From Desulfurococcales archaeon ex4484_58 (GTDB taxonomy: Archaea > Thermoproteota > Thermoprotei_A > Sulfolobales > Desulfurococcaceae): a stretch of 45,651 bases of DNA. The stretch is from positions 1-45,651 of the forward strand of contig NJDP01000001.1 in NCBI GenBank assembly GCA_002254665.1, written 5' to 3'. Numbering within the stretch: position 1 is the first letter of the stretch; the number at the start of each line of letters is the position of its first letter. The notes beneath the pieces are model-generated. The model did no database searches. It was not told the origin of the DNA and saw only the letters and a program-made list of their open reading frames with translations. A program made the translations under genes and the position numbers. Positions 14,827 to 43,477 of this stretch are shown in pieces.

Positions 14827-16416
14827 ATGGCTATACAAGTAGATGAGAAATATAGAGCGATTAGTCCAGCAGAGTTTTTCCTAAAATATAAAGAGATAGC
14901 TGGGTTTGCAAACCCAGCTAGAGCTATGTATCAATCAATTAGAGAACTAGTTGAAAACGCTTTAGATGCTACAGATTCACATGGTATACTACCTAATATA
15001 AAGATCATTATACGTAGAGCTGATCCAGTCCAGAACTTTTATAGAATAACAGTTGAAGATAATGGTATAGGTATACCTCCACACATAGTCCCTGAGGCTT
15101 TTGGTAGAGTACTTTTCAGTTCAAAATATATACTAAGACAAACACGTGGAATGTTTGGTTTAGGTGTTAAAGTAGCTGTACTATATGGTCAAATGACTAC
15201 CGGTAGACCTGTAGAGATCATAACTAGTAAACCGGGTTTAAAACTCATATACTATTTTAAGTTGAGAATAGATGTTCGCAGAAACGAGCCAGTAATATTA
15301 GAGCGTGGGAGCTGGAGGAAGAATAGAGAATGGCATGGAACAATAGTGTCTCTAACAATAGAGGGTGATTGGAGTAGAGCTAAGAGTAAAGTTAAAGAAT
15401 ATATTATGAGAACAGCTGTTGCAACACCATATGCAAACATAGTCTTAATGACCCCGGATAATGAGATAATCTATTATGAGAGAGTGATCAATAAATTACC
15501 GAGACCGCCTAAAGAAGTTAAACCCCACCCCTATGGAATAGACTTAGAGGTATTAAAGGGAATTATAAGCTCAACTAGATATAAAACCGTATATGATATG
15601 TTGATCCATAGCTTCCAGGGTATAGGGGAAGTTACAGCTAAGAAGATACTCGAGAAGACAAGTATTGATCCCTCCAAAGACCCTAAGAAGTTAACTGAAC
15701 AAGAAAAACTACAGTTAATAAATGCTATGAGAGAATACGATAAATATAGACCACCAAAACCAGATGCATTATCACCATTAACACCAGAAATAATAATTGC
15801 TGGACTCAAGAGGATGTATCAACCAGAATTTGTAGAAGCTATTAGTAGGAAACCCTCAACCTACCGTGGACACCCATTTATCATTGAGGTAGGATTAGCT
15901 TATGGTGGAAAAACGCCTATGAGCGGATCGGATAAACCGGTTATTCTTAGATATGCTAATAAAATACCATTACTCTATGATGAGGGTAGTGATGTTATAA
16001 CTATGGTTGTGAAAGAAGATATTAGATGGAGTAACTATCTAGTCGAATTACCAGCACCGATCCTAGTCTTCGTCCATATATGTAGTACTAAAGTACCGTT
16101 TAAAGGTGTTGGTAAAGAGAGTATTGCCGATGTACCAGAGATTAGGAGGGAGATAAAATTAGGGATATCAGAGGTTGCCCGTAGACTGAGAAACTATTTG
16201 TCTAAGAAGAGAAGAGAAGAGGAGTTAAGGAAGAAGGTAGTGAATATTGCTAAGTATGTTCCAGAGATAACAAGAGCATTAACAACAATCTCTGATGGAT
16301 ATAGATTAGATCAAAACAAAATAATTGATAAATTAGTAGAGATAATTGCTTCACGTACAAGTTTACCTATTGATGAGATAAAGAAAATTGTTGAAAGTGT
16401 AGAGATAGGTGTGTAG
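14827..16416 (+). CDS. top6B: DNA topoisomerase VI subunit B
   Basis: GHKL ATPase motifs (ELVENALDA, DNGIGI, GxxGxG). Confidence 0.92.
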   Translation: MAIQVDEKYRAISPAEFFLKYKEIAGFANPARAMYQSIRELVENALDATDSHGILPNIKIIIRRADPVQNFYRITVEDNGIGIPPHIVPEAFGRVLFSSKYILRQTRGMFGLGVKVAVLYGQMTTGRPVEIITSKPGLKLIYYFKLRIDVRRNEPVILERGSWRKNREWHGTIVSLTIEGDWSRAKSKVKEYIMRTAVATPYANIVLMTPDNEIIYYERVINKLPRPPKEVKPHPYGIDLEVLKGIISSTRYKTVYDMLIHSFQGIGEVTAKKILEKTSIDPSKDPKKLTEQEKLQLINAMREYDKYRPPKPDALSPLTPEIIIAGLKRMYQPEFVEAISRKPSTYRGHPFIIEVGLAYGGKTPMSGSDKPVILRYANKIPLLYDEGSDVITMVVKEDIRWSNYLVELPAPILVFVHICSTKVPFKGVGKESIADVPEIRREIKLGISEVARRLRNYLSKKRREEELRKKVVNIAKYVPEITRALTTISDGYRLDQNKIIDKLVEIIASRTSLPIDEIKKIVESVEIGV

Positions 16417-16428
16417 AGGCGGTTTAAA

Positions 16429-17730
16429 ATGACTATTTCATCTATAGATAAGATCGCAAGGGATAAAAGCATATCTATTCTGAGAGAAAAATTTAGTGAA
16501 ATAGCTAAGAACATTATTGAAGGTAAGAGACCAGTTTTAATTATGCCTAAGAGAGTCTTGAGTAACACTATATATGATGAGAGAAATAGGCTATTGCTTC
16601 TAGGACCGGAGATGCAGAAGAGGAGCTTTCTAGATGTAAACGAGTCTAGGAAGTTTATGCAGACACTATTGATGGCTTCGATAATATATGAAGCACTAGT
16701 TAATGACGAATATCCAACGATCCGTGATCTATACTATAGAGGGAAACACACGATCTCCTATAGAGATCCTAGAGGTAAACTATATAGAGAGAATACTTGG
16801 GATGAACAAAGAGAATCCGATTCTGTAATTAGAGATTTAGAAGTATTTCTAGGCGTATTACGTGAAGAAATGTTGATTTTAAGTAAAGAGAAAGGAAAAG
16901 TTGTAGGGAACCTAGTTATTAAGAGTGGAGATGATACTATTGATCTAAGTAAAATGGGGCATGGAGCATACTCTATAGAACCAACACCTGATCTCATAGA
17001 ATTCAAGGATGTAGATGCCGAATATGTTCTAGTAGTTGAGAAGGATGCTGTATTTCAACAATTACATAGATATGGTTTCTGGAAAAAATATAAAGCAATA
17101 TTAATAACAAGTGCTGGACAACCAGATCGAGCAACAAGAAGGTTTGTACGCAGATTAAATGAGGAACTAAAATTACCAGTGTATATACTAGCAGACTCTG
17201 ACCCCTATGGATACTATATCTATAGCGTATTCAAGATCGGATCGATAACTCTATCGTATGAAAGCGAGAGATTAGCTACTCCAAACGCTAAATTCATAGG
17301 GGTATTGATGACAGATGTATTTGGAGATAAAGTGTTTGAGAAAATCTTAAACAAGACTAAAGTAGGTGATATTTCTAAGAAGATACTACGTAAACTACCA
17401 AGGAAAAAACCCTACCTGTCAGAGAGTGAAAGGAAAAACTATATTATTAAAGCTAAACTGAAAGATGTTGAAAGAGCAGTTGAACTGGTAGGATATGATA
17501 TAGCTGATGCTTGTATTGAGGATCGGGAGCTGAAATCGAAGATTAAAAGAAAGAAAGAGGGATTAGCTGGTTATCCATGGTTTAGAACACCTGAATGGAT
17601 ACGTGAACTATGTATATTCTTTAATACATTATCAAAACTAGAAATAGAAGCAATGGCTAGTAAAGGATTAAAGTTCTTAGCAGATAAGTATATCCCAGAA
17701 AAAATCGAGACAAAAGACTATATCGATTAA
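16429..17730 (+). CDS. top6A: DNA topoisomerase VI subunit A (Spo11 family)
   Basis: 5Y-CAP motif (IRDLYYRG), Toprim VVEKDA and DSDPYG. 433 aa, longer than I remember for the family. Confidence 0.92.
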   Translation: MTISSIDKIARDKSISILREKFSEIAKNIIEGKRPVLIMPKRVLSNTIYDERNRLLLLGPEMQKRSFLDVNESRKFMQTLLMASIIYEALVNDEYPTIRDLYYRGKHTISYRDPRGKLYRENTWDEQRESDSVIRDLEVFLGVLREEMLILSKEKGKVVGNLVIKSGDDTIDLSKMGHGAYSIEPTPDLIEFKDVDAEYVLVVEKDAVFQQLHRYGFWKKYKAILITSAGQPDRATRRFVRRLNEELKLPVYILADSDPYGYYIYSVFKIGSITLSYESERLATPNAKFIGVLMTDVFGDKVFEKILNKTKVGDISKKILRKLPRKKPYLSESERKNYIIKAKLKDVERAVELVGYDIADACIEDRELKSKIKRKKEGLAGYPWFRTPEWIRELCIFFNTLSKLEIEAMASKGLKFLADKYIPEKIETKDYID

Positions 17731-17785: not shown

Positions 17786-18576
17786 CTAATTCTCTCTCAG
17801 CTTCAAAATAACTAGATCGAGCTCAATAACATGTGATGCTACAGCATAACCACCCATGGTCTGTGAATCAGACAATAATAATATAGGTTTACCCGAGGGA
17901 GGTATTTGAACACATCCTCGATCAGTTGGTATAGATGGCAATCTACCTAGTTCACGGACAGACTCTAAACTCGGGCCATCTAATCTACAACCCATACGAT
18001 CACATTCTTCTGTAACTATATATTTTTCTCTAAACAATAGATCTGCGTCTCGTAGTAATGAATATGTGCAGGTCTAAGGAAACGAACCCTCCTCCAAATA
18101 CTTTCAACTTCATAATCCCCCGTAACCAATACATCATCAACTAATAAGTTTCTACCAATACAGCCAAACCCTCCTCTTAAATGAGTAGAACGACTACCAA
18201 GTACTTCTTTACATATAATACCACCAGCTACACCAATATATGAAAGAAAACTTTTATCAGGCATGATCCTTATTTCTTGTCCCTTCTCAACATATATTGG
18301 TTTCCACGACTCATACTCTACATTATCAATAAATACTTGGGGAAAACACCAGTAACAACTATAACTGTATCTCTAAGAGCTTCAAGTGTAATCGAACCAT
18401 ATAATTCTATAGATGCATTATTCCATGGACTACCCACAAGAACATTGCTATAGACATATGAAGTTTTTATCCATGGCTCCAGAAACTAGGACTCTTTTAT
18501 TACGATAACCATATCTACCATAATCTTGTATAGTAGCTAATCCATTAATAGATAATATACGTAGTACTTCAACCAT
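17786..18576 (-). pseudogene. pxpC: 5-oxoprolinase subunit C (PxpC/KipA) gene broken by frameshifts
   Basis: The N-terminus MVEVLRILSINGLATIQDYGRYGY... stops after 42 codons. Homologous segments continue in other frames (ORFs 18016..18264 and 17786..18037, ...TMGGY...). Confidence 0.8.
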
Positions 18577-19279
18577 TATATCCACCTATGAATACATTGA
18601 TTAATTCCTCGTACTCTTTTTGGTCAATAGGTTTAAACATTATTAGATCACCGGGTTTAATAGGAGTAGGTTTTTTTCTAGATCAAACATTTTAAGGGGA
18701 GTTCTACCAATTATTCTCCAACCACCTGGGCTCTTAACACTATATATACCAGTTAATAAACCAGCAATACCAACAGATTCTCTTGGCACTTTAGTTCTAG
18801 GAGTTTCGAGTCTGGGAACAGTTATCCTTCGATCTACTTCACCAAGATATATGAATCCCGGTGTGAAACCTATAGCATAACATGTATAGGTTTTAGAACT
18901 ATGTATCTTGACGATATCATCGACACTTAACCCTGTGATCTCGCTTATACTCTTTAGATCTAATCCGTATTCTTCGCTATAGAGTACTGGGATGATTCAT
19001 TTCTTCGGTTTATATATAGATTCTAGTTTCACACTATGATAACTTTTCCAGATCTCAAGTATTTTTATTACGTTTTTCACCACTAATCTTCCTAGGATCA
19101 TAGTATATAGTTATTCCTCCTATACCAGATACAATCTCGTATTCACTACCTAGCTCCTTTAACAATGCATGATACATTACATGGATTTTATCAATGCATT
19201 TGCGTGAAACTTCTCGACACATATCTATATATACCGTATATCCACCACTTAGAACTATACGTAAATCGTTAGACACCAA
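18569..19279 (-). pseudogene. pxpB: 5-oxoprolinase subunit B (PxpB/KipI) gene broken by frameshifts
   Basis: The N-terminal 74 aa are intact (19055..19279). The C-terminal ...KPGDLIMFKPIDQKEYEEL is in another frame. One shift lies in an A7 run near 18670. Confidence 0.75.
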
Positions 19280-20045
19280 TGATCTCCCTTAATGGTTTAA
19301 TATATACACCTACTTCTCTCAACCCCTCATATACTCTACGAACAAAATCTAGTGCTTTAGGAGAATCTCCATGTACACATAATTTATGTGCTCTCACTTC
19401 AACTTCATATCCATCAATCGATAACACCACTCCTTTATCAATGATCATCAATGCTCTCTTAACAGCTTCATCGACATCCTCTATTAATGCACTTGGTTTA
19501 GTTCTAGGAACTAATCTACCCTCTCTAGTATAGGCTCGATCAATAAAAGCTTCAAACGCTACACACAAACCGTGATCCTCCGCTACCTTAGCCATGGTAG
19601 AACCGTAGGGAGCTACAAGTATCAACCTATGATCATATTTCGTGATAGCTGAAACAATTGCTTCAGAATAATCAGTTCAAGTCCAAGCCATGTTATAGAG
19701 AGCACCATGTGGTTTAACATGTTGCATTCCAAGACCTTCGACTCTTAAAAATCCATTCAATGCACTAACTTGATAAATAATATAGGATTCAAGTTCTTCT
19801 CGTTTAACCTCTATAGCTCTACGTCCAAAACCCATAAGATCAGGGAAGCCGGGGGTAAGCACCTACGGCTACGTTTCTCTTTTTAGCGATCTTAACTGTT
19901 CTCCAAATACTCAATGGATCACCTGCATGGAATCCGCACGCAATATTTGCAGACGATACATACTTGAATAATTCATCTTCATCCACTAACCTCCACCTAC
20001 CATAAGATTCCCAGCATCAACATTTAGATCAATAGCTCTAACCAT
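19269..20045 (-). pseudogene. pxpA: 5-oxoprolinase subunit A (PxpA/LamB) gene broken by at least 3 frameshifts
   Basis: MVRAIDLNVDAG | ESYG..SSANIACGFHAGDP | ..[21 protein letters not shown] | ..APYGS..HGDSP are spread over three frames. Confidence 0.85.
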
Positions 20046-20059
20046 ACCAAACCCACCCT

Positions 20060-20755
20060 CTACTCTAATGCATATTCTAATGCTTTAACAGCGTGAATCC
20101 TAGCAGTATCATATAATTTAATATCATCAACTCTACCACTAAGTATTAATGGAAGCTCAGTACATGCAAGAGCAACTCCCTGAGCACCACGAGCCTCTAG
20201 ATCCTTGATTATCTCTACAAGTTTCTCTCTAGACTCCTCACGTATAATACCCTTTACTAATTCCTCGTAGATAATCTTATTAACGATCTCAACTCCATCT
20301 GGATCGGTATGATCACTTCTATTCCGTGCGTCTCCAACCCCCTACTATAGAAGCCTTTTTGTAACGTATACTTTGTCCCTAAGAGGCCAACTCGATAAAC
20401 CCGGATCCTCTAATAATTTTTCAGCTAGAGAATCAATAATACTGATCAATGGAATAGGGGATTCCTTAACCAAACGATCAAAATACATATGTGGAGTATT
20501 AGCAGAGATCAATGCAAAATCAGCACCAGCACTAGCCAATCTCTTAATAGCATCAAGTAAAATACCATAAGCCTTATCATCAAAACCCTTATCCACAGCT
20601 ACTGTAAACTCCTCAAAATTAACACTATAAATAATAATCTCCGGATAATGCTCATTTCTAAACCTCTTCCTATACTCTTCAACAATAGTCTTATAATATA
20701 GAATAGTAGACTCCGGACTCAAACCACCAACAATACCAATACGTTTCAAAAACAC
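20060..20755 (-). pseudogene. aspartate/glutamate racemase-family gene with two frameshifts
   Basis: N-terminal 120 aa are racemase-like (GIVGGLSPEST..., ISANTPH). The RVGLLGTKYT segment is in the +1 frame. The C-terminal ...ALACTELPLIL... returns to the first frame. Confidence 0.8.
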
Positions 20756-21219
20756 ACCCGTATATTAAAATATTTTATGAGGAAAACCAAAATATCTTTT
20801 CATAGGTTCTAATATCGAATACTAGTTAAGAACCCTAATAATAAGTGATCAGTTAAAACAAGCGTCCCGCGAAAGGATAGACAGATATCTACATGGGGTT
20901 CGCCATAGAAATGCTATTTCCTTCAGAGATAAATCAGCTTCCCTACTAAGTTACGAACGGAATAGTATGAAGAAAAATTTTAAACATATACCGAGTAGTG
21001 CTTAAAAGGCTAGAGGAACCAAGAATGGGATCTCTATAGCCTTAATATCTTTCCATAATGAATATCCCAAAGTAGGTCTATGAGTAGAAACACAAAAGCC
21101 ATTATCATTCATTGAGGAAACTACTAAATATATAAATGATGAGAAAACTCATTATATGTTGAAACAGTCTTGTATTTTGGAGAGGTTAAGAATTAAGCAT
21201 AATTTATATTTCTCCGCTA

Positions 21220-21721
21220 TTGTTGTATAATTGTATGGGAATAAGAGTGATTAAGTCCTATGTTCTTAGGAAGATAGTGTTCCCGTTGACGTATTTTGTA
21301 ATTTGTTTAGTATCACTAATATATATGAACACCTTATATGTAGATACCATTATAAGTTTATGTGTTAATGTTATAGGAATCATTATCTTTATTTTATCAG
21401 CTATTGGCATGGCTAAGATTCATTCAACGTATCCTAAAAGACATGATACCTTCTGATTTTCCTAGACTTCTACGTGAAGGAGCTTATTCTGTTATTAGGC
21501 ATCCGTTTTATGCACTCACTATAGTTAATCAAATTAGTATCAGTATCCTATTATTAAGTACCGAGGGACTACTTGCTTCGATACTGTGTATTCCGTTATG
21601 GATTATATTAATAGTGCTTGAAGAAAAAGAGCTAATTGAGTATTGGGGAAAAGAGTATTTAAATTATAAAAAACGAAGTTCCAGCTTTAATACCCTTACC
21701 TCGGAGAAAGAGAAAACGTAG
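21220..21721 (+). pseudogene. ICMT/phospholipid-methyltransferase-family membrane protein split by one frameshift near 21380-21404
   Basis: Two overlapping ORFs in different frames. The second carries the family motif EGAYSVIRHPFY plus EE..L...G..Y..Y. Confidence 0.6.
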
Positions 21722-25765: not shown

Positions 25766-26728
25766 TTGACTGAGAAAAAAGACAAGATCCTAAAGTTAAG
25801 GGATATACCTGGAGTAACACCCACAATAGCTGAGAAACTAGAAGCAGCTGGATACATAACTCCATGGGCTATAGTAGTTAGTCGCGTAGAAGAACTAGCT
25901 GAAAAAGCAGGTATACCGCAGACCACAGCTGAGAGGATAATACAGAATGCTAGGAAGATCCTTGGTGTAACATTTAAGACCGCTAAACAAGTTAAAATGG
26001 AGAGATTAAGTATTAGGAAGATCACAACTGGTAGTAAGAATTTAGATGATCTATTGGGCGGAGGGATCGAAACAAAAACTATAACAGAGTTCTATGGAGA
26101 ATACGGTACAGGCAAAACACAGATCTGCCATCAACTAGCAGTTAATGTACAATTACCACCGGAACGGGGAGGATTAGCTGGTAAAACAGTATATATTGAT
26201 ACAGAGGGAACTTTTAGATGGGAGAGAATAGAAGCTATGGCTAGAGCATTAGGACTAGACCCGGATGAAGTAATGGATAATATTTATTACCAGAGAGCAT
26301 ATAATAGTGATCACCAAATATCAATAGTTGATGAACTATTCAAATTTGTACCAGAAAACAATGTTAAACTAGTAATAATAGATTCTGTTACAAGTCATTT
26401 TAGAGCAGAATATCCCGGTAGAGAACATTTAGCTGTTAGACAACAGAGATTAAATGCTCATCTACATCAGCTAGTAAAACTAGCAGAGATATATAACATA
26501 GCAGTTGTAGTAACAAACCAGGTAATGGCTAGACCAGATGTATTCTATGGGGATCCAACACAAGCTGTAGGAGGACATGTATTAGCACATACTCCTGGAG
26601 TTCGAGTTCAATTGAGGAGAGCCAAGGGTAGTAAAAGGATAGCTAGAGTAGTTGATGCACCACATCTACCAGAGGGAGAAGCAGTATTTGTGATAACAGA
26701 TGAAGGAATACGTGATCCAGAAGAATAG
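25766..26728 (+). CDS. radA: DNA repair and recombination protein RadA, no intein
   Basis: N-terminal HhH domain, Walker [10 protein letters not shown], Walker B VKLVIIDS. Confidence 0.93.
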
Positions 26729-33245: not shown

Positions 33246-34889
33246 TTGATCATACTCAAAGCTAAGAGATGGCTTGATAAAGAAGAATTCAAGGAAGTTA
33301 TGAGAATAGCTGATTATAATGGATATAGTAGGGATGGATCGATATTTATCTTTAATATCGATAAAGCTGTACGAAATGGTTACGGGTATGAAGATGTAAT
33401 ATCACTTATTAAAGAATATGGATTAGAAGTAGAGGATAATGGATTAGAAGAGTTAAAGAAACTCTATGGAGAGCTAAGTATAGTTATTGAATGGGATCGT
33501 GGTAGCGGCTACATTAAAGCAAGGATACCTAGAACCATATACTTCAAAGTAAAACCTATATTAATGGATTCTTCAGCAAAGTATGTTTCGAGAACAGAAC
33601 ACGAATATGTATATAGGATACTTCCATCAAAACTCTATATATTCAAGGAAAAGATCGATGGCTTGGGATTAAACGTTAATGATAGAAATAGTTTATTAAA
33701 AATAAAAAATCTTCCATACAATATTGAGCTAAGAGATATTAAGCTAAGAGATTATCAAATAGAAGCTCTTGAGAAATGGATTAAAAACAATAAACTAGGG
33801 ATAATAGCGTTACCAACGGGTTCCGGAAAAACAATAATTGGAATCGCCGCGATCACAAAAACTAATGTTAGAACATTAATAATAACTTATACACGTGAAC
33901 AAATGTTTCAATGGAGAGACTCGATTATAAGATATACTACACTAGAACCCGGTCTTGTAGGGTTAATATATAGTGAGGAAAAGAGGTTAGCACCAATAAC
34001 TATAACTACTTATCAAAGTGGATTTAGATTAATAAATGATATATCACCATATTTTAATCTCTTAATTGTTGACGAAGTCCACCATTTACCAGCTGATAAG
34101 TTTAAATACATAGCTCTACACAGTATCGCACCATATCGTATGGGTTTATCAGCTACGCCAGTACGTGAAGATGGTAAACATGAAGAACTATTCCCATTAC
34201 TCGGTGGAATAATATATTATAAAGCACCAGCTGAATTAGCTAATATGGGTTATTTAGCTAGATATAGAGTATATACTATAAAAGTAAAACCAACTATAGA
34301 TGAAGAAAAAGAATTCGAAAGACTTAGGAGAAAATATCGTTCATTAATTGGATACCAGAGTTTCCAAGAAGTACTCGAATCTGCTAGAAGAGGAGATGAG
34401 AAAGCACGTGAAGCATTAAAGATACACAGTCAAATTAGAATGTTACTTGCTAGATCAAAGTCTAAGATCGATAAAGCAGTGGAGATCGCTGAAAAAGAAC
34501 TAGCCAGAGGATCAAAGATCATAATTTTCACCCAATACGTTGAACAAGCGAAAGAGATCAGTAAAAGATTAAACGCCTATCTGTTAACGGGGGAAGTACC
34601 AGTCGATATTAGGAGAAGAACATTAAATAGATTCAAAGAAGAGTCTAGCGGTGTATTAGTAGTTACAACTGTAGGTGATGAAGGTCTAGATATACCGGAT
34701 GCCGATGTTGGAATAATAGTTTCAGGGACTGGTTCACGTAGACAATTTATCCAAAGACTGGGCAGGATCCTAAGACCTAAAGAAAAAGGAAAAGAAGCTA
34801 GATTATATGAAATAGTATTAGCTCGAACACCCGAAGAATACCATTCGAAGAAGAGAAAGAAGATCGATTTAGATGAATTCCTAGCCTAG
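33246..34889 (+). CDS. xpb: XPB/Rad25-type SF2 DNA helicase
   Basis: Motif I LPTGSGKT, motif II DEVHH, SAT, the RED motif (VREDG) and motif VI QRLGRILR. Confidence 0.85.
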   Translation: MIILKAKRWLDKEEFKEVMRIADYNGYSRDGSIFIFNIDKAVRNGYGYEDVISLIKEYGLEVEDNGLEELKKLYGELSIVIEWDRGSGYIKARIPRTIYFKVKPILMDSSAKYVSRTEHEYVYRILPSKLYIFKEKIDGLGLNVNDRNSLLKIKNLPYNIELRDIKLRDYQIEALEKWIKNNKLGIIALPTGSGKTIIGIAAITKTNVRTLIITYTREQMFQWRDSIIRYTTLEPGLVGLIYSEEKRLAPITITTYQSGFRLINDISPYFNLLIVDEVHHLPADKFKYIALHSIAPYRMGLSATPVREDGKHEELFPLLGGIIYYKAPAELANMGYLARYRVYTIKVKPTIDEEKEFERLRRKYRSLIGYQSFQEVLESARRGDEKAREALKIHSQIRMLLARSKSKIDKAVEIAEKELARGSKIIIFTQYVEQAKEISKRLNAYLLTGEVPVDIRRRTLNRFKEESSGVLVVTTVGDEGLDIPDADVGIIVSGTGSRRQFIQRLGRILRPKEKGKEARLYEIVLARTPEEYHSKKRKKIDLDEFLA

Positions 34890-35668: not shown

Positions 35669-36007
35669 GTGGTAAAAAATATGGAGAATGAAGAAAAGTT
35701 TAAGATAATAAAGTATTTTGAGGGAGAAGCTAAAATTGGAGAAGTTCTTCAAGGGTTCGAGAATCTAGTGATCAAACCAGAGGATCTAGCTAGTCCAGTT
35801 TCTTTCCAAATGGCAATAACTAGAATGATCGATACATTGATGAAGAGTATGTCAGAGGGTACTAAGAAGAAGTATATTGCTGAGATAAGGTTTAAAGATA
35901 GTACAGGTAACCCGGTTATAGTAGCAGTTGATCTTGGAGAGAATAAACCATTATTTACAAGTGATAAAGTGAAAGCTAGAATTTTGATCGAATTATATGA
36001 GGAGTAG
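35669..36007 (+). CDS. hypothetical protein
   Basis: ORF of 112 aa. ATG 35681 is the likely start. Confidence 0.45.
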   Translation: MVKNMENEEKFKIIKYFEGEAKIGEVLQGFENLVIKPEDLASPVSFQMAITRMIDTLMKSMSEGTKKKYIAEIRFKDSTGNPVIVAVDLGENKPLFTSDKVKARILIELYEE

Positions 36008-36317
36008 AGGGTTCTTTTTGAACAGAGAAGATTGTGGACGTTGGAGTAGATTATTGAAAAAGAGAGAACTACTAGCATATTATAGATTGTGTAGAGAAGA
36101 GAGTGAATGGAATATAGGCGAGGCAGTTGATCAGTTATGTAAAGAACTATTATTTACACGTAGAGTTTCTTTCTCGATCATTCGAAGATTGAAGAGAATA
36201 GGTTTATTAGTTCAAATAGATCATGTAAGATTCAGATGCGTTCCATTCACAAATTATATTGAAGAACTCTATAAGAATTATATTTGTAAGAAAAGAAGAC
36301 GATTAAAGACGGCTTAA
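35997..36317 (+). CDS. small winged-helix (wHTH) DNA-binding protein
   Basis: The segment EAVDQLCKELLFTRRVSFSIIRRLKRIGLLVQ looks like an HTH recognition helix plus wing. Confidence 0.45.
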   Translation: MRSRGFFLNREDCGRWSRLLKKRELLAYYRLCREESEWNIGEAVDQLCKELLFTRRVSFSIIRRLKRIGLLVQIDHVRFRCVPFTNYIEELYKNYICKKRRRLKTA

Positions 36318-36380: not shown

Positions 36381-36680
36381 TTACTCTTCTTTAACCTTCA
36401 TCTTTATCTCAATGATACTTACTCTAGTCTCACGTCCAGCAGGGTTTGTTACTGTTTGACTCCCAATCTTAATGTCTTCAATATCAACTTTACCTGGCAA
36501 GAACCTGTTTCTAACGATCTCTACAGTATCTACAGCTTTACTGATAGCTCTACCACGAGCTTTTACAACAATGTCTTTGACACCCTGATGTATTAGAGTT
36601 AATACCGCTATTACATAGTTCATAACCGGTTTCTTACCAACTAAGACTGTATTTGCAGCTTGTGGCTCGGCTTCAGCCAT
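36381..36680 (-). CDS. albA: chromatin protein Alba (Sso10b-type, paralog 1)
   Basis: [14 protein letters not shown]...[22 protein letters not shown]. Confidence 0.9.
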
Positions 36681-36847
36681 TTCACGATCACCTAGGTTTT
36701 ATTGCTTATATATCGATTAATCTAACTAATCAAAGTGTGTATATAAAAGCTTTTCTCTTATACCACGATAGTTTCCCAGTGATACTTAGTCTCTTCTTTT
36801 TAAACAATACAGACCTCTCCTATCCTTACAACGAGGGATTAGTAGTT

Positions 36848-39800
36848 ATGACTGTAGATGTTAATCCAGTATACGAGAAACTATGTCCAATATGTGGAGG
36901 CAGAGCATCTGTCTCAGAAATAAAAATGTATGGTTCATGTAGAAGGTGTAGTACTAGAGAAAAAACAGTCTTAAATGCATTAACACTCCATCAAGTACTA
37001 TTAGATGAACAGAGAGAATTCAATAGTTTCTTCCAAAAAATAACCAACGGATATAAACCATGGGGTGCACAAGAAACATGGTTAAAACGATTACTAAACA
37101 ATGAGAATACAGTCATAATAGCACCAACTGGTATGGGTAAAACAACCCTCCTCCTAGCATACGCACTATACGCTTCAACCCGTTATCAGAAGAAAACATT
37201 AATATTGACACCAACGAAGACACTAGCAAAACAAACATATTTGAAACTATTAGAATATAGTGATAGATTAGACAATAGAAGACCTAAGATCCTATACTAC
37301 GACTCAAGTCTAAGTAAGAAGAAGAGAGAAGAACTATTAGAGAAGATCAAGAATGGAGAATACAATATACTAGTACTAACCAATCACTTCTTGATCAAAA
37401 GATTCGATCTACTAAGCAATGATCATATCCATATAGTAATGATCGACGATGTAGATGCACTATTGAAAAACAACAAGAATATAGCAAAACTACTCAAGTT
37501 ACTAGGGTATAGTGATGAACTAATTGAGAAAGTGAAGGAAAAACACAGGATTATATGGAAGATAATACTGTCGAAAACATTTGAGAAAGAAGAACTAATT
37601 GATCAATACATCCATAAACTAATAGAGATAGAGGAGGAAATAGAAGAATTAATGAGAAAAACTAAGAAGAGACAAGTAATAATAGCTTCCGCAACAGGTA
37701 AAATGAAAGGTTCAAATGCTAAAATACTTAGAGAACTTTTAAGGATCGATGTATCCGGTATAACTATATATGGGAGAAACATAACCGATACATATAAGTT
37801 AATAGATAATGATCCATCGGAGATCAATAAAATACTTACAACCCTTGGAAAAGGGGGATTAATACTAGTAAGCCCTAGACACCCGTTTAGAGAAAAAATA
37901 GATTCTATAGTACAAAGTATTATCAAAGAATTAAGGAATAAAGGGTTTAGAGTTGAAGAAGCTACACCATCAAATGTGAAGAAGTTTATTGAAGGAGAAA
38001 TAGATTATTTGATTGGGAGCTCAAGCTATTATGGAATATGTGTCCGTGGAATAGATGCTCCAAAAACTATTAGATACGTTGTATTCCTAGGTACACCAGT
38101 CTTTACAGTAGAACTAGATACTCTATTAGCATCCCCCAATATGCTGGTTAGAACCGCTCTATTTCTAGCTGAATACTATGGAGAAAATAGATATAGAAGA
38201 ATAGCTTGCGAGATTAGAAAGAAAATATTTACATTAACAAATAGTGAGTTAAGAATAATTTCGATGTTATTAAAAAAGAAGCTTACATTAAATGATCTAA
38301 ACAATAAGAAACTAGAGAATGTTTACAAATCTCTCGAGGAATACTATAGAGATATACTAAACGATCTAAAGGCACTGCTCAGTAGAGAAAAAGTATTAGA
38401 AGTAAACACGTTAACGTTCTATTATAATGGAGAGAAGTATGTAGCGATGATACCGGATGTACTAACATATATTCAGGGTAGTGGGAGAGCTAGTAGATTA
38501 TATCTAGGCAGGATGACCCATGGATTATCAATAATATTTGAATTCCATGAACTATCAAATCTAGTTAAAGCATTAGACCTAAAACTAAGCTTCTACAGCG
38601 GATCAAGACTATTTAGAGAACTTGATAAGATCGATTTAGAGAAGGAATTAGATGAGATAATAAGTTCTCGGAGAAACATAGATATACCCGGTAGTATAAA
38701 GTATAAGAATATCCTAGTAGTAGTAGAATCACCTACTAAAGCAAAATCTATTGCTAAATTCTTTGGTAAACCAGTTAAGAGGAAGATTGGAACAGTAAAT
38801 ATCTATGAAATACCATTTGTTAAAAACAATGAAGTATATCATTTAAATATTATGGCTACACGTGGACACATATATGATTTAACAACTAACCCTAAAACAC
38901 CTAATCACGGAATAGTGTTTAACCATAAAGAGATTCAGCCACACTATGATACGATCAAGAGATGCCGTGTATGTGGTCATCAATTCACATACGGTGATCA
39001 ATGTCCAAGATGTGGAAGTAGAAGCTATATCGATTCATTAGAAATAATTAATGTACTAAGGAAACTAGCTGGAGAAGCTCATGAGATCTATATAGCAACA
39101 GACCCTGATATTGAGGGTGAAAAGATAGCTTATGATGTCTACTTAGTTGTTAAAGAATTCAACAAGAATATTTGGAGAATAGAACTACATGAGATCACCT
39201 TGAGAGAATTCATGAAAGCACTGGAAAGGAAGAGAAGTATAGATGAAAAACTAGTTGAAGCAGAGATCTATAGAAGAAGCCTTGATCGATTAATAGGTTT
39301 TAGTCTAAGCCATGAACTATGGAGAAAATATGGTAAGAAATGGTTTGGAGCTGGACGGGTTCAGACACCAGTTTTAGGATGGATTATTGATAAGTATAAT
39401 GAGTACTCCCGGAATAAATGTAGAAAACTAGTGTTCCGGGTGAAAGATTATCCTAGAATACACTTATCTATATGTATACCATATAAAGACAGGGATCTAT
39501 ATGATAAGCTATCTAGTATCGGAAAGGCCCGGTTTAAACACGTTAAAACCTATATAGAGACTATAAATCCAAAACCACCCTATACAACTGATGAACTACT
39601 ATATGATGCTAGTAGATATGGTATATCATCATCTACAACTATGAAAATAGCACAGGAACTATTTGAATCAGGATTAATAACATATCATAGAACAAACCAC
39701 CACTACATATCATCAACCGGCATCTCTATAGCTATGAAGTATTTGGAAGAAAAGAAACTAATAGAATATAGTAAACCAAGCCATTGGGGCGAACCGGGAG

Positions 39801-40504
39801 CACATGAAGCTATTAGACCAGTCCATCCCCTCGATAGAATGGATCTAGAGAAAACTGTAGCTGAAGGATTGATCAATCCCATTATACCACTAACTCATCT
39901 CCACTATAGAATATATGATCTAATATTCAAGAGATTTATTAGCAGTCAGATGAAGCCTTATCGTGTATTGAGACGGGAATACCTAGTAGAGCTTGGTGAG
40001 GGGTATAGTGAGAAACTAGTATTAGATGTTGGGATCGTGGAGAATGGATTTAATTTGATAGTAAAACCCCGAGTCTATGAAGAATTAAGAAATATATTAG
40101 AGTTTGAATCGGATATAGAGTTGATAGTCAGCAGGATCGCATCTAAAACAGTATTGTATAACGAGGGTGGAATTATTAAGAAGATGAAAAATGAAGGTTT
40201 AGGAAGACCTAGTACATATGCTAAGATCATCTCTAGTATAGCTAGACATGGCTATATTATTAGGTCTAAGAAGAGAAACTATCTAATACCAACGAAAACT
40301 GGTGTTGAAGTCTATGGTTTCTTAACAAGTAATTATCCAGAACTAGTATCGGTCGAGACTACTAGGAGGATGGAAGAAATGATCGATCGGATAGCATGTG
40401 GGGAACTATCTTGTGGAGAAGCATTAACAACTATATATGGGTTGATCAAGGAATATAAGCTTCCACTATCCATAATTGAGGTAGAAACTAGTATTTCCTC
40501 TTAA
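36848..40504 (+). CDS. rgy: reverse gyrase (helicase-like domain plus type IA topoisomerase), no intein
   Basis: N-terminal zinc finger CPICGG...CRRC, Walker A APTGMGKTT, DDVD, Toprim IATDPDIEGE, second zinc finger CRVCGH..CPRCG, TYHRT active-site Tyr region. The track ORF starts at 36653, but that extension is antisense to albA. Confidence 0.93.
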   Translation: MTVDVNPVYEKLCPICGGRASVSEIKMYGSCRRCSTREKTVLNALTLHQVLLDEQREFNSFFQKITNGYKPWGAQETWLKRLLNNENTVIIAPTGMGKTTLLLAYALYASTRYQKKTLILTPTKTLAKQTYLKLLEYSDRLDNRRPKILYYDSSLSKKKREELLEKIKNGEYNILVLTNHFLIKRFDLLSNDHIHIVMIDDVDALLKNNKNIAKLLKLLGYSDELIEKVKEKHRIIWKIILSKTFEKEELIDQYIHKLIEIEEEIEELMRKTKKRQVIIASATGKMKGSNAKILRELLRIDVSGITIYGRNITDTYKLIDNDPSEINKILTTLGKGGLILVSPRHPFREKIDSIVQSIIKELRNKGFRVEEATPSNVKKFIEGEIDYLIGSSSYYGICVRGIDAPKTIRYVVFLGTPVFTVELDTLLASPNMLVRTALFLAEYYGENRYRRIACEIRKKIFTLTNSELRIISMLLKKKLTLNDLNNKKLENVYKSLEEYYRDILNDLKALLSREKVLEVNTLTFYYNGEKYVAMIPDVLTYIQGSGRASRLYLGRMTHGLSIIFEFHELSNLVKALDLKLSFYSGSRLFRELDKIDLEKELDEIISSRRNIDIPGSIKYKNILVVVESPTKAKSIAKFFGKPVKRKIGTVNIYEIPFVKNNEVYHLNIMATRGHIYDLTTNPKTPNHGIVFNHKEIQPHYDTIKRCRVCGHQFTYGDQCPRCGSRSYIDSLEIINVLRKLAGEAHEIYIATDPDIEGEKIAYDVYLVVKEFNKNIWRIELHEITLREFMKALERKRSIDEKLVEAEIYRRSLDRLIGFSLSHELWRKYGKKWFGAGRVQTPVLGWIIDKYNEYSRNKCRKLVFRVKDYPRIHLSICIPYKDRDLYDKLSSIGKARFKHVKTYIETINPKPPYTTDELLYDASRYGISSSTTMKIAQELFESGLITYHRTNHHYISSTGISIAMKYLEEKKLIEYSKPSHWGEPGAHEAIRPVHPLDRMDLEKTVAEGLINPIIPLTHLHYRIYDLIFKRFISSQMKPYRVLRREYLVELGEGYSEKLVLDVGIVENGFNLIVKPRVYEELRNILEFESDIELIVSRIASKTVLYNEGGIIKKMKNEGLGRPSTYAKIISSIARHGYIIRSKKRNYLIPTKTGVEVYGFLTSNYPELVSVETTRRMEEMIDRIACGELSCGEALTTIYGLIKEYKLPLSIIEVETSISS

Positions 40505-40781
40505 CATGAATAGCTATAAATGACCGGAGCCTACCACGTCTCCTCTCACTACCGATCTCAATCTTCTCCAACACGATGCCCTCACCTAGTCTATGGCGAA
40601 GCTCATTATATATATCAACAGCTTTACTAATATAGTCGCCAAAACCCTTGATCACAATATGATCTATTCCCTCTTGAAAACTAATAATGATATCAAATAC
40701 ATAATCATCAAGAGGTTTCCTACCAACATCAATAGTTCTCGAAATACCAGAACTCAACAATAACACCCTCCACAAAATCAA
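40488..40781 (-). CDS. Alba-family protein, divergent paralog (Alba2-like)
   Basis: GRKPLDDYVFDII...HIVIKGFGDYISKAVDIYNELRHR. Confidence 0.8.
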   Translation of the reverse strand: MILWRVLLLSSGISRTIDVGRKPLDDYVFDIIISFQEGIDHIVIKGFGDYISKAVDIYNELRHRLGEGIVLEKIEIGSERRRGRLRSFIAIHVKRKY

Positions 40782-40863
40782 TCACAAACATACCTATAAG
40801 AAAGAACATATATTGAACAACATTAATAAACACAACGATAACAATACCACCAATAAACGAAAT

Positions 40864-40899
40864 CTCCACACGAAATAAGGGAGGATACTGGGGAGTATC
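40864..40899 (+). repeat. ORB-like element E
   Basis: CTCCACACGAAATAAGGGAGGATACTGGGGAGTATC. Confidence 0.5.
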
Positions 40900-40962
40900 C
40901 TATGAACCAATATAAACAAAATCAAGACCATCTCTCTTAATGGTAAATTGGTTACACACCAA

Positions 40963-41000
40963 GTAACCCCCCAGTATCACACCCCTATTTCCTATGGAAA
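40963..41000 (-). repeat. ORB-like element D
   Basis: Minus strand reads TTTCCATAGGAAATAGGGGTGTGATACTGGGGGGTTAC. Confidence 0.6.
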
Positions 41001-41062
41001 TCAATTAAATTTCTCATGAAGGTATTAAAGGAGACTCTCAGTTGTAGAGGAGTTAGTTTCTT

Positions 41063-41100
41063 TTCACAGGAAACATAGGGGTGGCACTCCCCGGTGTCAC
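41063..41100 (+). repeat. ORB-like element A
   Basis: TTCACAGGAAACATAGGGGTGGCACTCCCCGGTGTCAC. Confidence 0.65.
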
Positions 41101-41173
41101 CTATTTAAAACACACTAAAACTAAAGAGTAGATTATCAATTCTAAAAAACATTTATCATAATATCTTATAGTA

Positions 41174-41200
41174 GGCACAACCCCTATATTTCGCTTGGAA
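41174..41200 (-). repeat. ORB-like element G (shorter)
   Basis: Minus strand reads TTCCAAGCGAAATATAGGGGTTGTGCC. Confidence 0.5.
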
Positions 41201-41333
41201 AAATAATCTAACTTTATGTATGGAAAAATATTTTTAATCAAAGCTACTTTATAGATCATTACTATTAAGATAATCTTCATTATACAAACCATTAACTGTA
41301 ATATCTGAAAAATGATTATGAACAAACTAATTT

Positions 41334-41363
41334 TTCCATAGGAAATAATGGGGTCGGGGGCTC
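41334..41363 (+). repeat. ORB-like element F
   Basis: TTCCATAGGAAATAATGGGGTCGGGGGCTC. Confidence 0.55.
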
Positions 41364-41389
41364 AATAGTATATACTACGAGGTAGTGGG

Positions 41390-41425
41390 TCGAGTGGAAG
41401 CATAGGGGTGATACTGGGGAGTTAC
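41390..41425 (+). repeat. ORB-like element B
   Basis: TCGAGTGGAAGCATAGGGGTGATACTGGGGAGTTAC. Confidence 0.6.
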
Positions 41426-41488
41426 ATCAAATAAATAGTAATAAATGAGAATAGGAAGTAAACATTAATAACTATGAGTTCAAGTGGG

Positions 41489-41523
41489 TCCAGTAGAAAC
41501 ATAGGGGTGGCACTCCCCGGTAC
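41489..41523 (+). repeat. ORB-like element C
   Basis: TCCAGTAGAAACATAGGGGTGGCACTCCCCGGTAC. Confidence 0.65.
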
Positions 41524-41562
41524 CATTTAAACAATAAGATACACAACATAGAAAAAATAAAA

Positions 41563-41570
41563 CCATATAA
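41563..41570 (+). promoter_or_regulatory. possible TATA box for the RNase P RNA gene
   Basis: CATATAAA lies about 27-30 nt upstream of the first paired nucleotide of P1. Confidence 0.3.
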
Positions 41571-41598
41571 ACATAAGAAAATAATATTGAAAAACCCA

Positions 41599-41993
41599 CC
41601 GCAAAACCCTCCACCCCTCTCAGGGGTAGAGCCTCCACTACGCCCCGGGAGAGATCAGATCTCTCCGGGGCGAGGAAACACCGCACACCCCGTAGAACCA
41701 TGGCCCCGTGAAGGGGCACGGCGAATAGCCGTGGCTCCGGCACAGAAACGACACGGCCACCACACAGATGGCGATGAGACGGTGTGGGGTCTCCGGTGAC
41801 GGGGGCCCGGTAACCCGTCGAGGACGGTGGTGGATGCGTTGAAACGGCCGGTCCCATGGGGTGCAAGGCCCCTGAATTGTTTAGGGGGGATGAGGTCTAC
41901 GCGATCCCCGGTGGGGGCCGCTTAGTCTAATGTGGAGGTATTTACAGAATGCGGGTTATGCTCTATCCCTGAGAGGGGTGGAGGGTTTTGCGG
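41599..41993 (+). ncRNA. rnpB: RNase P RNA (archaeal type A)
   Basis: A ~395-nt GC-rich island. CR-I GAGGAAAC(A)CCGC lies at 41672-41684 and CR-V ACAGAAUGCGGGUUAU at 41944-41959; together they form P4 with a single bulged A. P1 is 27 bp perfect (41599-41625 / 41967-41993). P2 is CCTCCAC/GTGGAGG and the P3 hairpin is 41643-41669. P8/P9-like GNRA-type hairpins and the GGCACAGAAAC element are present. Confidence 0.88.
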
Positions 41994-43369: not shown

Positions 43370-43477
43370 TGGACCGGCCGGGATTTGAACCCGGGACCTT
43401 CGGCTTTCTTCGACCCCGGTCAAAGACCCGATGAGGCCATGCAAGGCCGACGCTCTTCCAGGCTGAGCTACCGGCCC
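43370..43477 (-). tRNA. tRNA-Ala (anticodon UGC) with a ~34-nt intron after position 37 (about 43406-43439)
   Basis: Hand-folded. Acceptor GGGCCGG/CCGGTCC with the G3:U70 Ala identity pair, D-arm GCTC/GAGC, anticodon stem TCGGC/GCCGA, loop CU-UGC-A, T-arm CCGGG-TTCAAAT-CCCGG. Confidence 0.9.

Follow-up and report, generated by a model that had tools for sequence, protein, structure and literature searches.

An ORB cluster with a ucm motif between alba2 and the RNase P RNA gene is a probable oriC1-type replication origin in an uncultured relative of the Desulfurococcaceae

The chromosomal origin oriC1 of Sulfolobus islandicus no longer fires in vivo when linker-scanning mutations hit a short motif, the ucm (PMC12141716). 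[quoted passage not shown] Besides the Sulfolobales, both origins of Aeropyrum have the motif, and ubp is confined to the Desulfurococcales and Sulfolobales (PMC12141716). S. islandicus UBP was co-crystallized with a 12-bp duplex (ATTATACAAAAG / CTTTTGTATAAT), and the Ori-Finder-Arch preprint uses TTATACAAAC as its ucm criterion. For the origin recognition box (ORB), an archaeal consensus of Pelve et al., in the form quoted in PMC4153887, reads CTTCCAGTGGAAACGAAAGGGGT. Rebuilding the S. islandicus ORB3–DUE–ORB2 core from published oligonucleotides, we obtained ACCCC-TTCGG-TTCCATTGGA ... ucm ... CTCCAAATGAAA, an arrangement in which the two ORBs are inverted, their dyads lie next to the duplex unwinding element (DUE) and their G-strings are distal. 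Here we describe a locus that shares this arrangement.

The stretch of DNA analysed, referred to as the window, is a complete metagenomic contig of 45,651 nt with 35% GC. Near its right end, a gap of about 0.85 kb separates alba2 (40488–40757, minus strand) from the RNase P RNA gene (41625–41967, plus strand), and transcription of both genes points away from the gap. The called alba2 product of 89 aa contains a Pfam Alba domain and has 1udv (Sso10b2/Alba2) as its top PDB match; the RNA gene matches Rfam family RF00373 (archaeal RNase P RNA) with 147.6 bits. Between them we found no conserved ORF, and a search of the gap against Rfam at a permissive threshold returned zero family matches at E ≤ 1. 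The flanking genes and ORF-free gap named in the original prediction are thus borne out by Pfam, PDB, Rfam and the ORF check. Judged from its sequence, this gap very likely serves an uncultured hot-spring archaeon as a chromosomal replication origin that depends on Orc1/Cdc6 and belongs to the oriC1 type. Features of such origins that it has are several ORBs, an inverted pair with proximal dyads, a ucm within the DUE and conservation of the whole module at the orthologous locus.

Of the seven ORB elements within 40865–41521, five lie on the plus and two on the minus strand. The outermost, ORB A (40865–40896, plus strand), adjoins the alba2 promoter and is of the long form described below, with a degenerate G-string, GGGAG. 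ORB B (40966–40998, minus strand) and ORB C (41063–41096, plus strand; GGGGTGGCACTCCCCGGT) are also long and together make up a second divergent ORB pair, whose 62-nt spacer is moderately AT-rich and contains no ucm. The core inverted pair is formed by two short boxes: ORB D (41174–41199, minus strand), its left half, with the dyad toward the DUE, and ORB E (41335–41362, plus strand), its right half, in which a GGGGG tract follows 6 nt on. Two further long boxes, ORB F (41390–41422, plus strand; GGGGTGATACTGGGGAGT) and ORB G (41489–41521, plus strand), complete the series, the latter being the best match to the consensus.

A regular expression written from the window's own copies, with Markov-2 simulations as background, matched only these seven elements in 45,651 nt, against 0.09 matches expected. 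Because this test is circular, we built an independent nhmmer profile; the 28 ORBs in it come from seven other loci, and the window organism was left out. Its top seven matches in the window were exactly ORBs G, C, E, B, F, A and D (E-values 3.5e-5, 2.5e-4, 0.005, 0.011, 0.018, 0.2 and 0.5, respectively), and all remaining matches had E-values of at least 2.7. ORBs A and D are individually weak and not significant alone; D is supported by its conserved position, whereas A occurs in this organism only, without a counterpart in L003, L008, L024 or any other locus. Compared with the consensus of Pelve et al., the elements agree at 15–18 of 23 positions, S. islandicus ORB3 itself scoring 19 of 23. 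Number, places and orientations of the copies were therefore as originally predicted, as was the lack of any further copy in the 45 kb, and the identification of the motif as an ORB is upheld by both the profile ranks and the published consensus.

Five of the boxes (ORBs A, B, C, F and G), like their counterparts in relatives, are 'long': a second G4/C4 tract lies past the G-string. This tract starts 11 nt after the start of the G-string in most long boxes and 13 nt after it in ORB B, and it may read GGGG or CCCC; either orientation is seen, as ORBs C and F illustrate. In relatives, the second tract is usually followed by a tail resembling a half-dyad, GTT(C/T)CAC. The core boxes D and E, by contrast, are 'short' in every lineage.

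Two AT-rich stretches lie among the boxes, and the original prediction had assigned unwinding to both. For the second (41200–41334), 135 nt with 80.7% AT between ORBs D and E, the assignment stands on geometry and on the ucm, and this stretch is the probable duplex unwinding element. Among 135-nt windows it ranks within the highest 0.05% for AT content, a level that two further intergenic regions of the contig equal. The first stretch (41101–41173; 80.8% AT) was rejected as the primary DUE: since it lies between the G-string sides of ORBs C and D, an arrangement unlike that of Sulfolobus oriC1, and contains no ucm, it is probably not the primary unwinding element. [quoted passage not shown]

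The ucm, which the original prediction did not mention and which is the strongest evidence for an origin, was exposed by aligning the gap with related loci, where it appeared as the one conserved block in the second stretch. This motif, TCATTATACAAAC (41277–41289, plus strand; TTTGTATAATG on the minus strand at 41278–41288), is the single match in the window at no more than one mismatch, lies between D and E, 20–25 nt to the E side of the centre of their spacer, and is a predicted UBP site. The S. islandicus ucm has exactly the same 10-nt core, TTTGTATAAT, over which the window sequence also equals the co-crystal strand CTTTTGTATAAT. Agreement with the S. islandicus oriC1 oligonucleotides (...CTTTTGTATAATGG...) extends over 11 nt, TTTGTATAATG, and the motif contains the Ori-Finder-Arch sequence TTATACAAAC. 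Comparing the short ORFs scanned in the window with PDB, we found no UBP homologue, which says little, as the window covers a small fraction of the genome; the same search matched Alba1, Alba2, Sm, FKBP, PCNA and Pxp fragments. We also considered an origin of the WhiP type, as in Sulfolobus oriC3 (IR(+)/ucm/IR(-)), and rejected it: the 12-bp TACTACTACTAC repeats are absent from 40782–41624 at up to two mismatches. Elsewhere in the window, matches of this type numbered 14, compared with 8.9 expected by chance.

For the comparison with relatives, we retrieved contigs encoding Alba2 and Tsr3 homologues. Three more uncultured lineages (L003/L004, L008/L009, and L018 with L024) share with the window the order reverse gyrase, alba2, ORB cluster, RNase P RNA; in the first two, which were the lineages measured, Alba2 is 66–69% identical to that of the window. 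All three also have the layout C, D, ucm, E, F, G, at matching offsets. Relative to the ucm, and with the window as the fourth lineage, C lies at -209 to -217, D at -81 to -100, E at +54 to +85, F at +110 to +140 and G at +187 to +237. ORB B is found in two lineages, at -282 and -288, the latter being its counterpart in L008. In a five-genome alignment of the D–ucm–E segment, the G-strings of the ORBs, parts of the dyads and 13 consecutive columns of the ucm are invariant, and the rest of the D–E spacer has diverged. This pattern is a phylogenetic footprint.

The locus can be followed into cultured species. In Desulfurococcus amylolyticus DSM 16532, whose genome is complete, the order is tsr3, RNase P RNA, ORB(-)/two copies of the ucm/ORB(+), alba2 and reverse gyrase; the core, at about 1,261.5 kb of CP003321.1 (L028, 7,100–7,250, reversed), is accompanied by further ORB-like boxes. 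Thermogladius calderae has a more diverged version of the locus with alba2 inverted. Tsr3 identities of 61% to Thermogladius and 56% to Desulfurococcus place the organism near the Desulfurococcaceae; an identical Tsr3 is encoded on a 611-kb contig. ORB(-)/ucm/ORB(+) modules were also present 2.4–2.7 kb from tsr3 in Pyrolobus fumarii (CP002838.1; L029, 2400–2700) and in a Sulfolobales MAG (JANXDZ010000001.1; L030, 2279–2431). The modules in these more remote genomes suggest that the linkage of oriC1 with the tsr3 and RNase P RNA neighbourhood is old. We found no published description of a Desulfurococcus origin at this locus in our literature search. The alignment with relatives proposed along with the original prediction thus shows an ORB and ucm layout conserved in three uncultured lineages and in D. 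amylolyticus; together with the ucm itself and the ORB(-)/DUE/ORB(+) geometry, it supports the reading as an origin.

The initiator gene is not adjacent. Among Pfam-scanned ORFs of at least 110 aa, no Orc1/Cdc6 domain was detected in the 40.8 kb to the left of the site or the 4 kb to its right, nor in the 7.5 kb past the right end of the window that a second assembly of the same organism supplies (L025), so that orc1/cdc6 is absent over about 41 kb on one side and 11 kb on the other. Adjacency of origin and initiator is typical but not universal: orc1/cdc6 does not lie next to the origin in A. pernix (PMC5333045), nor in H. butylicus (Ori-Finder-Arch preprint), both members of the Desulfurococcales. 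Along the 45-kb contig, the cumulative GC skew goes with the strand of the genes and makes no turn at 41 kb; just 4 kb of the contig lie to the right of the site, and at this length the profile is uninformative.

Drawing on the Sulfolobus and Aeropyrum literature, we propose how such an origin might work. An Orc1-1-type initiator, encoded elsewhere in the genome, would bind each ORB as one monomer with fixed polarity, its winged helix on the dyad TCCAnnGGAAA and the ISM of its AAA+ domain on the G-string. With ATP bound, Orc1-1 at D and E would bring a pair of MCM hexamers to the AT-rich spacer, N-terminal tiers face to face, and UBP, sitting on the ucm between the hexamers, would contact the MCM N-termini, bridge the hexamers or hold them at a distance, and promote activation or egress. 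One fork would then run through alba2 and reverse gyrase and its partner, in the opposite direction, through the RNase P RNA gene and tsr3. Boxes C, F, G, B and A, outside the core pair, are probably auxiliary and serve to increase the occupancy of Orc1 at the site or to adjust firing, in the manner of ORB1 of Sulfolobus and ORB1/ORB4 of Aeropyrum.

A module of the same kind also occurs on a circular element, L021 (JGI contig Ga0105156_1000285, 1–8770). An exact terminal redundancy of 123 nt indicates that this contig represents a circle of 8,647 bp. It encodes two paralogous capsid proteins of the His1-type spindle-virus family (PF25665; 49 and 42 bits), a wHTH regulator of the Sulfolobus pRN type and a 745-aa membrane-anchored protein, and among its genes we recognized no replicase, replication protein or Orc1. 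Its module (560–1100) has the order ORB(-)/four copies of the ucm/ORB(+), with long ORBs, inside a 79-nt inverted repeat, and the element also carries GTTAGGATTCCTAAC palindromes. Scans of IMG/VR with the long-ORB pattern and with the 745-aa protein gave no match and no relatives of L021, and PHROGs yielded nothing useful for it. L021 may be a minimal virus or plasmid relying on the oriC1 machinery of its host. A bolder version, which we put forward tentatively and consider rather unlikely, is that the long ORB and ucm module is common property of Desulfurococcaceae-type chromosomes and L021, that L021 replicates solely by offering a copy of the host's oriC1 to host Orc1-1, UBP and MCM, and that such modules move between chromosomes and mobile elements. 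If so, L021 would show the 'extrachromosomal element capture' model at work today, with the corollary that the long ORB, having a second G4/C4 tract of either orientation one helical turn downstream and a half-dyad tail, would be an Orc1 site occupied by two protomers or read by shape.

L021 bears on whether the site in the window might itself have belonged to an extrachromosomal element (for instance a virus or plasmid like L021) that became integrated or was captured, as opposed to being the ancestral chromosomal origin. That a circular, spindle-virus-like element of 8.6 kb has the same long ORBs and ucm copies speaks for such a history, and the element-capture model for archaeal origins is an established one (Robinson and Bell 2007). 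Yet the flanks are housekeeping genes, synteny extends from the uncultured relatives to cultured Desulfurococcus, and no integrase, att-like repeat or viral gene lies adjacent. Moreover, the module is found near tsr3 even in Pyrolobus and the Sulfolobales MAG, so that any capture would be ancient and the site now a resident origin; we regard a captured element as very improbable. Short inverted and direct repeats clustering in an intergenic region could also represent a dispersed short repeat, a MITE or a chance grouping unrelated to replication. This is scarcely credible, given that the repeats have zero copies elsewhere in the 45 kb or in about 60 kb of related loci without a cluster (L010–L015, in which MgtC directly precedes alba2 and which contain neither an ORB cluster nor a ucm), and that each position keeps its own flavour and offset in orthologous loci. 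Scanning 241 million metagenome records with the long-ORB pattern returned nine stretches, three true matches, all in origin-like regions, and about six random ones. The scatter over many loci that would have spoken against the original prediction was thus seen neither in the window nor in the origin-less loci nor in the metagenomes.

A dormant or purely regulatory Orc1-binding region, serving for instance to control transcription of alba2 or RNase P RNA or to organize chromatin while another origin fires, deserves more consideration. Dormant origins bearing ORBs are known in archaea (H. mediterranei), Desulfurococcales can have more than one origin, A. pernix having two (PMC5333045), and ORBs A and G lie close to the promoter regions of alba2 and RNase P RNA. 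Against this reading, the full grammar of an active origin is conserved here (inverted pair, AT-rich spacer and ucm), box offsets are kept across lineages, and box A is missing in relatives. We hold this explanation to be improbable and prefer an active chromosomal origin of the oriC1 type.

The surroundings of the proposed origin provided several further observations. The origin-proximal 40 kb are rich in genes for DNA transactions (3–500, 14827–17730, 25766–26728, 33246–34889 and 36653–40504): the C-terminal half of PCNA, topoisomerase VI B and A, RadA, XPB helicase, reverse gyrase and both Alba paralogues. Two small genes (35669–36317, plus strand), bounded by alba1 and a 237-aa ORF, encode an acidic protein of 112 aa and a basic one of 106 aa, for which we found no Pfam family and no PDB match, including UBP; related loci have unannotated genes of similar size in the same place. 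To the right of the origin, a 108-nt tRNA that ARAGORN missed (43370–43477, minus strand; Rfam 58.5 bits) is also present in L008, L018, L027 and L028 and is presumably an intron-containing archaeal tRNA. At 17,800–21,720, the 5-oxoprolinase subunits PxpB/KipI, PxpC and PxpA/LamB and an aspartate racemase are represented by short fragments only, in separate ORFs, with the N-terminal half of the racemase downstream of its C-terminal half; gene decay or rearrangement appears to have affected this patch.

Rearrangement was also observed at the locus itself in relatives. In L010–L015, whose Alba2 is 59–66% identical to that of the window, the alba2–reverse gyrase–alba1–XPB block is inverted relative to 30.5–40.8 kb of the window; one breakpoint of this inversion is exactly the alba2/origin junction, and no ORBs lie beside alba2 there. 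In T. calderae (L027, 6882–7600), alba2 alone is inverted, placing the origin between alba2 and reverse gyrase. The origin looks like a rearrangement hotspot. In addition, 7 of about 10 contigs of relatives that reach the locus end in or at the ORB cluster (L004, L005–L007, L009, L018 and L024), and these come from independent assemblies. The likely causes are the near-identical long ORBs in direct and inverted orientation, or strain heterogeneity at the origin.

If the locus is the origin it appears to be, the D–ucm–E segment (41174–41362) would narrow the likely start of chromosome copying in an uncultured hyperthermophile to about 190 bp. It would also extend the Sulfolobus grammar of ORB and ucm unchanged to Desulfurococcaceae-like lineages, including the cultured D. 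amylolyticus, and make the RNase P RNA/tsr3/alba2 neighbourhood a landmark for finding origins in those MAGs of the clade that have no orc1-adjacent origin. An inversion breakpoint falls at the same site, and assemblies often break there. The locus would be a textbook archaeal origin that leaves current understanding unchanged.

Among described origins, the locus resembles Sulfolobus/Saccharolobus oriC1 in the sequence class of its ORBs, in the inverted pair with dyads toward an AT-rich DUE and in the single ucm inside that DUE. It differs in having seven ORBs as opposed to three, an inter-dyad spacer of about 135 nt as opposed to about 100 nt, and a second G4/C4 tract in five of its seven boxes, which S. 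islandicus ORB3 lacks; furthermore, Sulfolobus oriC1 abuts orc1-1, which has no adjacent counterpart here. By their published descriptions, oriC1 (Ori1) of Aeropyrum pernix and oriC of Hyperthermus butylicus are similar in that inverted ORBs surround an AT-rich region with no adjacent orc1/cdc6, Aeropyrum having four ORBs compared with the seven here (PMC5333045, PMC8287685, PMC12141716 and the Ori-Finder-Arch preprint). ORBs of Methanomassiliicoccales carry a 'GGGGGT' extension beyond the G-string (PMC4153887), and each ORB of Haloarcula oriC1 contains a G-rich inverted repeat that enhances origin activity. The long boxes are like both in having a second G-rich tract just past the canonical G-string, and unlike them in that this tract lies 11 nt on (13 in ORB B), may be GGGG or CCCC and, in relatives, is followed by the GTT(C/T)CAC tail.
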